Source: Pelosinus propionicus DSM 13327 (GTDB taxonomy: Bacteria > Bacillota > Negativicutes > DSM-13327). Taken from it: DNA of 64,000 nt. The notes below the pieces were generated by a model. The model saw only the letters and a list, made by a program, of their open reading frames with translations. It was not told where the DNA came from and searched no databases. The position numbers were made by a program, and so were the translations under genes. Shown piece by piece: positions 33,065 through 36,924 of this stretch (position 1 is its first letter; each line of letters starts with the position of its first letter). The stretch lies in NCBI RefSeq assembly GCF_900114615.1, contig NZ_FOTS01000012.1, positions 1 to 64,000 of the forward strand, written 5' to 3'.

Positions 33065-33103
33065 ATAATATGATAAGTGCAGTAGATATGTGATTATGTT
33101 AAT
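33065..33103 (-). promoter_or_regulatory. Sigma-K-type promoter ATTAACATAATCAC-N17-CATATTATA for collagen gene 1
   Basis: On the coding strand this matches the AC-N17-CATANNNTA mother-cell consensus. The same 14-nt upstream motif and exact 17-nt spacer recur upstream of copies 2 and 3. Confidence 0.45.
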
Positions 33104-33179
33104 GATATAAAATATTGAGTCAATTGTATTCCATAGGAATTAGTGCTTTTATATAAAAGAAATGTTGAAACAAAGCTGT

Positions 33180-34751
33180 TTAGCTTAAACGTATAATAGA
33201 AAGAGTGGCACCTGCACCAGTGATCAGAGCAGCTGTGCCAACAAGACCGAATAATTGCAGAGTAATCGTTGAATTGGCTGTTAAGGTTGTTATAATACTA
33301 TTATTATAGGATGTGGAAACTAGACCTGAATTTACTGTAGAGGGTAAATTATTAGTACCATTTATAATTAGCCTGCTGCTTAATGCTAAGCCGGCAGTCA
33401 TATTCAGTTGATATGATAGATAATACCTTCCTGCCGGCGTAACAGTAAAAATTGTATTTGCTGCATTTACTGCAATGTCAGCTGAGAGATTTTGACTATT
33501 AGGAAGAGGAACTGACGTACCAAGAAGGATTACTGAAATCGATCCGCCTCCGGTATTAGCTGCGAAACCAGAAGTTGCAGTAGTACTAGTGCCGGTAGGA
33601 CCGGTAGCACCATCTGTTCCAGTGGGACCAGTAGCTCCAGTGATGCCGGTAGGCCCTGTCGGTCCGATAGAGCCATCATTTCCGGTAGCACCAGTAGGTC
33701 CGGTAACTCCAGTGATGCCGGTAGGCCCTGTCGGTCCGATAGAGCCATCATTTCCGGTAGCACCAGTAGGTCCGGTAACTCCAGTGATGCCGGTAGGCCC
33801 TGTCGGTCCGATAGAGCCATCATTTCCGGTAGCACCAGTGGGTCCGGTAACTCCAGTAGTGCCGGTAGACCCTGTCGGTCCGGTAGATCCAGTAGGACCT
33901 ATAGCACCATCAGCACCTGTGGCTCCAGTAGGGCCAGTACTGCCTGTAGTGCCTGTAGCACCTGTACGTCCAGTGGCACCAGTGGGGCCGATTGCTCCGG
34001 TATTACCTGCGGTGCCAGTAGAGCCTGTAGGACCGGTGTCACCAGTTGTACCAGTGGCGCCCGTACGGCCTGTAGCACCAGTAGGGCCAATTGAGCCAGT
34101 AGGGCCAGCGATTCCGGTAGATCCCGTGGGACCTGTAGCACCCGTTGTCCCGCTAGGGCCTGTAATACCTACGTCGCCAATAGGACCGGTTGGACCAGTG
34201 ATACCGGTAGGTCCAGAGGCTCCAGTGATACCTAAACCTGTACTGCCAGTAGGACCAGTTACTCCAATGCCGATGGGTCCGGTTGCTCCAGTAGCTCCTG
34301 TCGTACCTGTTGGCCCAGTGGCTCCTGTCGTACCGGTAGCTCCTGTGCGGCCTGTAGCCCCTGTCGTGCCTATAATACCCGTATCCCCGGTGGCTCCCGT
34401 CGTACCTGTTGGGCCAGTAGCTCCTGTCGTACCGGTAGCACCTGTACGGCCCGTAGAACCTGTTGTTCCAGTAGATCCAGTAGCACCAGTGGCGCCGGCA
34501 ATGCCTGCAGTGCCCGTATCTCCTGCAGGACCTGCAGCGCCAGTACGTCCAGTGGCACCAGTCGGTCCAATGGAGCCAGTGGCCCCAGTAATGCCTGTAG
34601 TCCCAGTTGGTCCTGTAGTTCCAGTACTACCAGTACGTCCAGTCGCTCCGGTTGGTCCCGTAGCACCAGTAGCACCAGTGGGTCCGGTTGGCCCAGTTGG
34701 CCCATCTGCACGAAACGGTACTTGAATAGAATCTAATAAAGAAACTTCCAT
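33180..34751 (-). CDS. BclA-like collagen-repeat glycoprotein, copy 2
   Basis: [18 protein letters not shown]-terminus, GxT repeats, C-terminal globular domain ending ...LSIIRLS. Confidence 0.8.
33637..33852. repeat. 3 x 72-bp near-identical tandem repeat inside collagen gene 2 (24-aa unit [24 protein letters not shown])
   Basis: Units 33637-33708, 33709-33780 and 33781-33852 are identical except for one base. Confidence 0.9.
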
Positions 34752-34816
34752 CTTAGATGTTACACCTCCGCTCTGTAGTAGAATGATAGAAACAGCTATC
34801 GTAAAACTAGCTAGTA

Positions 34817-34856
34817 GTATACTATGTTAATTGCGGAGAAAGCGTGATTATGTTAA
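34817..34856 (-). promoter_or_regulatory. Sigma-K-type promoter ATTAACATAATCAC-N17-CATAGTATA for collagen gene 2
   Basis: See 33065-33103. Confidence 0.45.
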
Positions 34857-34930
34857 TAGTGAAAATTGCATAGAGAAAGCAGGCCTACGACCAAAATCGA
34901 GGCCTGCCTTGTTATGACATGCAATTGACC

Positions 34931-36823
34931 TTACGTGATATTAAGACCTGCGCTTGCATATCCCGTAACAGTATTAACTAAAGTCAATCCTGTAGCTGTT
35001 GCTGAAAATACCAATAACAAGCGAGTTTGCGCGGTTACAGGTATAGATAGACCTGTAGTAATACCATTACTAATCGTGCCAAGAGCCACAGTACCTGTTA
35101 GAGCAGGAGCTAATGCTACAACAGCCCCTGGGACTGCCGTAAAGGTGTTGTCTGGAGTAGTGGATTGGAATAATTGTGCCGTAATCGTTATGGTAGAGCC
35201 TACTAATGCTAACGCTACTGTGTTGCTAAAATAGGCAGTAAGTGAAGTAATTGTTCCAGCACGAGGAACAGAGAAGGAAAAATCAATAATAGGACCTAAA
35301 GCCGTACCCGTAAGATCAATTGCTCCGCCGACAAGGCTAATGCCAGTTGCTGAAGAGCCAAAGCCAATAAGACTTGTTGTACCAACTAATCCACCTGCAA
35401 TTGTAGTCAATATAGCAGGGCCGCCTGAGGCAAAAGGAATGATTGCACCTAAACCAGTTGAGCCCGTAGGTCCGGTTGCGCCCGTTGATCCAGTTGCACC
35501 AGTAGCTCCTGTATCACCAGTGGCACCAGTGGCACCAGTGCCTCCAGTAGGTCCAGTAGGTCCGGTTGCACCAGTTGCACCCGTTGAGCCAGTAGGTCCA
35601 GTGGCTCCTGTGTCACCAATTTCGCCAGTAGCGCCAGTAGCGCCAGTACCGCCAGTAGGGCCAGTCGGACCAGTAGCACCAGTCGAACCAGTAGCACCAG
35701 TAGCTCCTGTATCGCCAATGTCGCCAGTAGGACCAGTGTCACCTGTAGCGCCTGTAGAGCCGGTAGGCCCGGTCGCGCCAGTAGCACCAGTAGCTCCTGT
35801 ATCGCCAATGTCACCCGTTGCTCCAGTTGGACCTGTTGCTCCAGTAATGCCATTAACTCCAGTAGCTCCAGTTGGCCCCGTGGGACCAGTAGGACCAGTG
35901 GCACCTGCCTCTCCAGCAGTTCCAGTAGCGCCAGTAGCACCAGTCGCTCCAGTTGCCCCAGCAGTTCCGGTAGCGCCAGTCGGACCAGTAGGACCGGTGG
36001 CACCTGCCTCTCCAGCAGTTCCAGTAGCGCCAGTAGCACCAGTCGCTCCAGTTGTCCCAGCAGTTCCGGTAGCACCAGTCGGACCAGTCGAACCAGTGGC
36101 ACCTGCCTCTCCAGCAGTGCCCGTGGCGCCAGTAGCTCCAGTAGCTCCAGTTGCCCCGGCTGCACCAGTTTCGCCAGTAGAACCTGTCGCTCCCGTTATA
36201 CCATTGGCACCTGTAGACCCTGTGGCACCTGTGCGGCCAGTAGCACCCGTTGGTCCAATCGGTCCAGTATCACCCGTGCTTCCAGTAGATCCTGTAGGAC
36301 CTGTTGCTCCTGTAGCACCGGTAGCGCCAGTACGCCCAGTAGCCCCTGTGGATCCAGTAGCGCCAGTGGGACCTGTAACTCCTGTAGGACCGGATGGTCC
36401 GATTTCAGTAGCACCAGTAGCACCAGTGCGTCCAGTAGCGCCAGTAGCTCCAGTAGCGCCTGTAGGACCAGTAGATCCAGTGACTCCTGTAGGTCCAATT
36501 TCAGTAGCACCAGTTGCCCCGGTACGTCCGGTGGCTCCAGTAGGACCAATGGAACCTGTAGGACCTGTAATGCCCGTAGCACCAGTAGGCCCGGTATCTC
36601 CAGTGCTGCCCGTAGCTCCTGTGCGTCCAGTAGCACCTGTTGGTCCGATTGGTCCGGTACCGCCCGTAAGACCGGTAGTGCCAGTTGGGCCTGTTGCTCC
36701 GGTAGTACCAGTAGCGCCAGTACGTCCGGTGGCTCCTGTTGGTCCCGTAGGACCTGTAGGACCTGTTGGTCCAGTTGGACCAACCTCTTGACGAAGAAGC
36801 ATATCAAAATCAGGACTTTTCAT
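34931..36823 (-). CDS. BclA-like collagen-repeat glycoprotein, copy 3
   Basis: [16 protein letters not shown]-terminus after a GGAGGTG RBS; long GxT region; C-terminal globular domain ...YASAGLNIT. Confidence 0.8.
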
Positions 36824-36884
36824 ATAAATAGAACACCTCCGAATAATTGTATGCCCTAATAGAAGGGAAAATGCTAACCTGCTA

Positions 36885-36924
36885 TATCTTATGCAAAATT
36901 TTAAAAAAGTGTGATTATGTTAAT
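36885..36924 (-). promoter_or_regulatory. Sigma-K-type promoter ATTAACATAATCAC-N17-CATAAGATA for collagen gene 3
   Basis: See 33065-33103. Confidence 0.45.

Follow-up and report, generated by a model that had tools for sequence, protein, structure and literature searches.

The closest described systems to the locus reported here are the promoters of collagen-like exosporium glycoprotein genes in Bacillus and Clostridioides, in which sigma-K control of bclA-type genes is already known. In Bacillus thuringiensis, the activity of the bclA promoter (CAC-N16-CATATGTTA) is lost in a sigK mutant (PMC4750369). In Clostridioides difficile, the collagen-like genes bclA1, bclA2 and bclA3 are under sigma-K control and carry a sigma-K-like consensus upstream (PMC3789822). 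The sigma-K consensus in B. subtilis and C. difficile consists of AC at −35 and a CATA-type −10 element; sigma-E has ATA at −35, and the −10 elements of the two sigma factors are near-identical (PMC3789822). According to one report, spore-formers all have sigK, and in Pelosinus fermentans the gene is split by a skin element (bioRxiv 10.1101/2022.02.25.481979). Here we analysed 64,000 nucleotides of the Negativicute Pelosinus propionicus DSM 13327 (contig NZ_FOTS01000012.1, positions 1 to 64,000; hereafter the window). The window carries four tandem collagen-like genes (c1–c4), and the subject of this work is a 14-nt box, ATTAACATAATCAC, found in the promoter regions of c1, c2 and c3. To our knowledge, no promoter has been studied in any spore-forming Negativicute.

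The Pelosinus promoters resemble those of bclA and bclB in B. thuringiensis HD73, which also lie before collagen-like exosporium glycoprotein genes with one sigma-K promoter per gene, and the arrangement at B. thuringiensis bclA is almost the same as the Pelosinus arrangement CAC-N17-CATANNNTA (PMC4750369). The B. thuringiensis promoters differ in having leaders of 120–150 nt, no TTAACATAAT module and GerE as a modulator at bclB (PMC4750369). In contrast, Pelosinus, a Negativicute, has a predicted leader of about 55 nt and an invariant 14-nt box. A glycosyltransferase gene lies beside bclA3 of C. difficile (PMC3789822), and a GT2-TPR glycosyltransferase gene is likewise near a collagen-like gene in Pelosinus. 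Gut-metagenome loci with a 46% identical GT2-TPR protein show GT2-TPR–collagen pairing of the C. difficile type. In loci of this type, unlike in Pelosinus, the box was not found and the glycosyltransferase gene lies upstream of the collagen gene. Our overall reading, which we hold to be reasonably probable, is that predicted sigma-K-type late mother-cell promoters drive genes for spore-surface collagen-like glycoproteins, and that these promoters carry a separate cis box in addition. The Negativicute lineage and the invariant upstream box are new, and the box looks like the mark of a single paralog family, not of a wide regulon.

Predicted promoter architecture upstream of the collagen-like genes

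The genes c1–c4 are all on the minus strand, and collagen repeats were found in all four. Exact copies of ATTAACATAATCAC occur three times in the window, all on the minus strand, and each copy is followed after exactly 17 nt by a −10 element of the CATANNNTA type. In the c1 promoter, box 1 (33090–33103), whose final AC is the putative sigma-K −35 element, precedes the −10 element CATATTATA (33064–33072). The c2 promoter consists of box 2 (34844–34857) and CATAGTATA (34818–34826), and the c3 promoter of box 3 (36911–36924) and CATAAGATA (36885–36893). From the end of the −10 element to the ATG there are 65 nt at c1, 66 nt at c2 and 61 nt at c3, and a GGAGGTG ribosome-binding site (RBS) precedes each of the three start codons. 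When the window was searched with 2 mismatches to ATTAACATAATCAC, no site beyond the three exact copies was found, and with up to 5 mismatches tolerated, the 64-kb window held no box site besides those at the collagen genes. A preliminary description of this DNA had reported the same 14-nt element with an exact 17-nt spacer and a −10 element at copies 1–3, about 55–75 nt before the start codon, and these measurements agree with it.

Directly 3′ of the c1 −10 element lies a semi-conserved stretch, ACATTGGTTAGCC (33051–33063, minus strand), with equivalents at 34805–34817 and 36872–36884 on the same strand. Its family pattern is ATTGG/ATTAG..TAGC, and its position suggests that transcription probably starts there. 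A second but degenerate box, CATTAACATACTCG (37022–37035, minus strand), was also observed just 3′ of the c4 terminator and about 110 nt 5′ of the real c3 box. It has no proper −10 element at the right distance and is probably a relic.

The arrangement upstream of c4 is looser. AC-N17-CATAGTATA was found at 39203–39176 on the minus strand, 40 nt 5′ of the ATG, and the whole promoter (39176–39219) reads TTACATAAT (39219–39211), 6 extra nt, CAC (39204–39202), N17 and CATAGTATA (39184–39176). TTACATAAT corresponds to the box core minus one A, shifted 6 nt upstream, and the same promoter arrangement is retained in the ortholog of c4 in a related Pelosinus locus (L098). The GT2-TPR gene has neither the box nor its own sigma-K-like site upstream. 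The preliminary description, in which copy 4 and the GT2-TPR gene both lacked the motif, was therefore right for the GT2-TPR gene but only partly so for c4.

About 0.0005 occurrences of an exact 14-mer are expected by chance in 2 × 64 kb (arithmetic). A chance origin of the box was ruled out by the exact 14-mers at the same offset from paralogous genes, together with the conservation in relatives. For the generic sigma-K pattern AC-N16/17-CATANNNTA, four of the nine sites in the window are located 40–66 nt upstream of the four collagen genes.

Terminator-like hairpins on the minus strand delimit two of these promoters. The hairpin after c3 (34872–34907; −22.8 kcal/mol, z −5.3, followed by UUUCUCU) ends 14 nt 5′ of box 2, and the hairpin after c4 (37055–37104; −24.2 kcal/mol, z −5.7) lies about 130 nt 5′ of box 3. 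Such strong hairpins 5′ of boxes 2 and 3 indicate that c2 and c3 each form their own transcription unit. Because only 14 nt separate the c3 hairpin from box 2, there is no space for another c2 promoter, and the promoter must sit at the box. No hairpin comparable to those after c3 and c4 was found in the c2–c1 interval, so read-through into c1 is possible.

Conservation of the box among Pelosinus relatives

Relatives were collected from a genome-wide pattern scan (L022, a P. fermentans metagenome-assembled genome (MAG), and L012, Pelosinus sp.) and from GT2-TPR protein searches (L098, L101 and L097, the last being Pelosinus sp. IPA-1). In L022 and L012 the pattern precedes syntenic collagen genes, which are followed by the same GT2-TPR gene, and L098 is fully syntenic. 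This synteny agrees with the assignment of the window to Pelosinus; an exact protein match came from a single Logan assembly, SRR4181676. Among six Pelosinus lineages the GT2-TPR protein is 69–89% identical, and the core TTRACATAA-NN(N)-AC, 16–17 nt from the −10 element, is kept in all six. Over 13 Pelosinus promoters the box occurs as ATTAACATAATCAC (seven times) or as the variants G/CTTAACATAATCAC, A/CTTGACATAAACAC, ATTGACATAAGAAC and GATTACATAATCAC. T..ACATAA..AC is invariant in all of them, always 16–17 nt from CATANNNT(A/G). The −10 element fits CATANNNTA in 12 of the 13 promoters, and the remaining one ends in TG. A nhmmer profile built from 11 promoters recovered all 15 collagen promoters (E ≤ 1.4e-6); over 0.95 Mb, comprising the window and the collected loci, nothing besides collagen promoters was found below E = 0.03.

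The sequence around the box is not kept in the same way. Between paralogs the box is 100% identical, while identity is 20–33% in the 40 nt upstream, 35–47% in the spacer and 28–40% in the 40 nt downstream. Between orthologs, spacers fall to 50–56% identity and the box is unchanged. Since the box is constant while flanks and spacers drift, it forms a phylogenetic footprint, and purifying selection on it is indicated. Judged by this pattern, the box is a conserved extra element under purifying selection, not a duplication leftover. The extended conserved upstream box that the preliminary description had proposed is borne out by the identity among paralogs and orthologs and by the nhmmer profile. 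Recent duplication as the sole cause of the identical boxes was ruled out, as the flanks are randomised between paralogs.

Two further arrangements were seen in the relatives. One gene in L022 (4763–6565) and one in L098 (8041–9843) are mosaics, in which a c1-type promoter, spacer and C-terminal domain are combined with a c3-type N-terminus (M.LPDLDLLLRQEV...), which indicates recombination among the tandem collagen genes. In Pelosinus sp. IPA-1 (L097, 11219–17302), three further genes have Cys-rich N-termini (MAFNDYPTTCEYCG...), of which g725 was checked and is collagen-like. In g640 and g725 a box copy lies 41 nt rather than 17 nt 5′ of a different promoter, AC-N17-CATAGGATA, and this arrangement looks like promoter-module shuffling.

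Occurrence of the box in other genomes

The pattern TTAACATAATCAC-N16-18-CATANNNTA was scanned against 185,579 species with one genome each. The scan returned 26 loci, versus about 13 expected by chance (arithmetic, uniform base composition). Among the 26, only the Pelosinus collagen promoters (L012, L022) and the loci L004 and L009 look clearly genuine, and L014 is uncertain. The other loci come from unrelated taxa, lie within genes or have the wrong orientation, for example L018 and L023, which adjoin leuB. In Pelosinus representative genomes the exact box with its −10 element was found only at these collagen genes. A regulon-wide motif was ruled out, as the exact box is genuine at few loci among the species genomes scanned. 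The preliminary description had named occurrence of the motif at this locus only as a finding that would speak against its proposal; the extended box is indeed largely confined in this way, but the generic sigma-K part is not.

L004 (5294–5333) and L009 (4801–4839) come from two unrelated MAGs of uncultured Bacillota (contigs JAUZPR010000189 and JANLFN010000008). In both, GTTAACATAATCAC-N16/17-CATAnAATA lies about 32 nt 5′ of homologous 53-aa open reading frames (ORFs; MTYRELLEY..PGCLQ..QQKKES), and the flanks of the box are otherwise unrelated. The ORF family has just these two members among 5.8 billion proteins. From the sequence context this match cannot be chance, and recognition of the box may thus extend beyond Pelosinus. 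The same GTTAACATAATCAC register in two unrelated MAGs is also a pointer to a separate binding protein.

L014 (533–572, a Bacillota MAG) has the box before a gene for a 126-aa DUF4183 protein, a family (PF13799) listed as 'F-ENAs' (endospore appendages). This protein is 56–84% identical across many Clostridia. Among five orthologs (L105–L109, about 2900–3000), those of Alkaliphilus, Tissierella, Desulfosporosinus and Lacrimispora have AC-N14-17-AATATACTA/G and no box, and the fifth (L105, Desulfitibacter) has a different upstream sequence. Several of the DUF4183 orthologs adjoin large F-ENA or GT2-TPR genes.

The box was absent from GT2-TPR/collagen loci outside Pelosinus (69 metagenome loci, Anaerosinus and one further genome), which have other promoter sequences before their collagen genes. 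Relaxed and profile searches of the window and all collected loci yielded nothing new, and a literature search for the box sequence returned just an unrelated primer.

Probable assignment of the sigma factor

Judging from their architecture and conservation, the c1–c3 sites are very probably functional promoters of the sigma-E/K family. AC is located 17 nt from the −10 element in all four promoters of the window and 16–17 nt from it in all 13 promoters of the relatives. The fit to the AC and CATA consensus and the resemblance to the B. thuringiensis bclA promoter uphold the match to sigma-K claimed in the preliminary description, and we infer that sigma-K specifically is the likely sigma factor. 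The window itself does not contain sigK. A search for the sigma-E −35 motif KMATAWW at the right distance found none in these promoters; the only matches overlap the −10 element (c1) or lie directly 5′ of it in the spacer (c4). A sigma-A reading of TTAACA/TTGACA or CATAAT in the box was ruled out, as the partner spacings are wrong and the partner positions are not conserved.

In the proposed mechanism, c1, c2 and c3 would each have a sigma-K-type promoter that the mother cell uses late in sporulation, and c4 would be transcribed from a looser version of it. The AC at the 3′ end of the box would serve as −35, followed by the 17-nt spacer and the CATANNNTA −10 element. Transcription would be expected to start 6–8 nt past the −10 element in the semi-conserved ATTGG..TAGC stretch, giving a leader of about 55 nt to the strong GGAGGTG RBS. 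The products would be BclA/BclB-type glycoproteins of the Pelosinus spore surface.

Possible readers of the box

If the start is assumed about 7 nt past the −10 element, the box covers about −46 to −33, ACATAA lies at −42 to −37, and the centre of a small dyad, ATTA-N3-TAAT, falls near −41. Apart from the AC, the box (ACATAA in TTRACATAA) is read as a separate cis element that would most likely bind a sequence-specific protein in a class-II-like position. Bound near −41 and touching the −35 element, the protein could contact sigma or the alpha subunit, and it would set high, late and coordinated expression of the paralog family. Displaced box copies favour such a protein: the shift is 6 nt at c4, 16 nt for the additional TTACATAAT that L022 and L098 have in their c2 promoters, and 24 nt at g640 and g725 of L097. 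From this evidence, a separate protein reading the box comes close to an even call, slightly on the doubtful side. A more tentative extension, which we regard as possible but rather unlikely, is that spore-forming Negativicutes and some uncultured Bacillota share an undescribed transcription factor that acts late in the mother cell and has the box as its operator.

GerE and SpoIIID of B. subtilis offer a similar design, in which a sigma-K core is combined with a short protein site at or overlapping the −35 element and late genes are sorted into temporal sub-classes. Unlike the GerE and SpoIIID sites, the box matches neither consensus and has so far been seen only before one paralog family and one small ORF family. 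No full match to the GerE box RWWTRGGYNNYY (core TRGGY; B. subtilis consensus) was found in the promoters. Within 101 nt around the four promoters, the SpoIIID motif WWRRACARNY (B. subtilis consensus, which may differ in Negativicutes) was absent from either strand, and the box has only the ACA core in common with it.

Four other explanations were weighed against the combination of a sigma-K promoter and a separate cis box. Dependence on sigma-E, or on both sigma-E and sigma-K, would agree with the very similar −10 elements of the two factors (PMC3789822), with a published description in which both SigE and SigK govern the expression of C. difficile BclA2 and BclA3 (bioRxiv 10.1101/2021.06.21.449304), and with the resemblance of CATAAT in the box to the sigma-E −35 (ATA). 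All sites, however, have AC and never ATA at the −35 position 16–17 nt from the −10 element. The ATA in the box is 22 nt from the −10 element, which exceeds sigma-E spacing, and we regard dependence on sigma-E as clearly unlikely. Less probable again is that the identical 14-mers are a residue of recent tandem duplication or gene conversion with no function apart from supplying the −35 AC. In favour of this, the paralogs stand in tandem, the mosaicism in L022 and L098 shows that recombination occurs, and the exact box is almost limited to this paralog family. But with flanks only 20–47% identical between paralogs, a conversion tract of exactly 14 nt would be needed, repeatedly; orthologs in six lineages retain the core while their spacers diverge, and two other MAGs have the same 14-mer, with its register kept, before ORFs of an unrelated family. 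This explanation is quite improbable to us.

The strongest competitor of a separate binding protein is the RNA polymerase holoenzyme itself. The box may be an extended −35 or UP-like determinant that sigma region 4 and/or the alpha C-terminal domain of the sigma-K holoenzyme reads directly and that is selected only for promoter strength. The fixed 16–17 nt register between box and −10 element, shared by L004, L009 and each of the 13 Pelosinus promoters, is consistent with this, as are the AT-rich composition of the box, its contact with the AC, and the failure to find a GerE or SpoIIID consensus in the promoters. Yet the sigma-K consensus of B. subtilis and C. difficile has only AC at −35 (PMC3789822), and sigma-K-like promoters of other spore-surface genes are without the box. 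UP elements tolerate variation, whereas ACATAA is invariant here, and a fixed-position contact is hard to reconcile with the displacement of the copies at c4, in the c2 promoters of L022 and L098, and at g640 and g725 in L097. We take recognition by the holoenzyme as a serious possibility, although we doubt it. The box could instead be the site of a GerE-like sigma-K co-regulator, as the preliminary description had suggested. GerE does modulate the sigma-K exosporium promoters bclB, bxpB and cotB in B. thuringiensis (PMC4750369). In the Pelosinus promoters the GerE core occurs only once, as TAGGC inside the terminator stem upstream of c2. The gerE gene has been reported mostly in bacilli, and with no full GerE consensus and no SpoIIID consensus in the promoters, the suggestion is not supported and such a co-regulator is very improbable.

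Several observations weigh against a sigma-K promoter with a separately read box. The window shows no excess of the generic AC-N16/17-CATANNNTA pattern (nine sites versus 7.5 ± 2.6 in shuffles), so the sigma-K call rests on position and conservation. With −10 elements so nearly alike, sigma-E and sigma-K cannot be told apart with full certainty from sequence. Outside one paralog family the exact box is all but absent, and shared ancestry therefore adds to its spread. Since four of the five DUF4183 orthologs have no box, the L014 match may be chance. With its fixed 16–17 nt register, the main box is as compatible with a holoenzyme contact as with an activator, and besides the absence of GerE and SpoIIID consensus sequences, no candidate regulator was found.

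Organisation of the cluster and other features of the window

The gene c1 (31193–32998) starts with MKDLFD and carries GXT repeats; its C-terminal domain had no match among family models. The C-terminal domain of c2 (33180–34751) is BclA_C (E 3.5e-40), that of c3 (34931–36823) is the BclB-related exosporium glycoprotein domain TIGR03721 (E 4e-62), and c4 (37138–39135), which has a distinct N-terminus, also carries BclA_C (E 1e-18). By repeats and C-terminal domain, c2, c3 and c4 are classed as predicted BclA/BclB-type exosporium collagen-like glycoprotein genes. Long antisense ORFs with PVAPV... repeats were observed on the plus strand within every collagen gene (31512–32975, 33589–34725, 35340–36791 and 37649–38854); these are a mechanical by-product of the GXT-repeat codons and not genes.

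The GT2-TPR gene (30001–31077, minus strand) is downstream of c1. Between the c1 stop and the GT2-TPR start lies a conserved hairpin of 15–16 bp (31108–31144, minus strand; −22.7 kcal/mol, z −7.1), which lacks a U-tract and shows 3 compensatory pair changes among 5 Pelosinus lineages. One possibility is that it tunes the ratio of glycosyltransferase to collagen, as an attenuator or an element of RNA stability; another is that it acts as a palindromic operator.

A polysaccharide cluster on the plus strand (19334–29694) converges on the collagen cluster. It encodes a UDP-GlcNAc-dehydrogenase-like protein, a protein with two polysaccharide-deacetylase domains, a NodC-like GT2 and a GH18 protein, and a c-di-GMP-I riboswitch (RF01051, 19068–19152, plus strand; 69 bits, E 1.6e-11) is located about 180 nt 5′ of it. 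In the region of 2817–5988 and 10009–14819, a TonB-dependent receptor gene and a TonB gene are consistent with a diderm Negativicute. In the same region, two RlaP-family genes about 0.7 kb from a divergent RtcB-family RNA ligase gene form a candidate RNA-repair cluster.

Implications

The importance of the finding is limited in that sigma-K control of bclA genes is established elsewhere and the box is seemingly limited to one paralog family and a few other genes. Within this limit, the late-sporulation promoters predicted in this cluster form a clean set, open to testing, for the collagen-like glycoproteins on the spore surface of a diderm spore-former. The invariant box is a handle for finding a substitute of GerE-type fine control outside bacilli, and it might also be put to use as a cassette for strong, late expression specific to the mother cell. 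If an undescribed transcription factor does bind the box, it would set apart a dedicated group of spore-surface genes inside the sigma-K regulon and do the work that GerE does in bacilli, and the 14-mer before the 53-aa ORF in two MAGs would be the first hint of a wider regulon.

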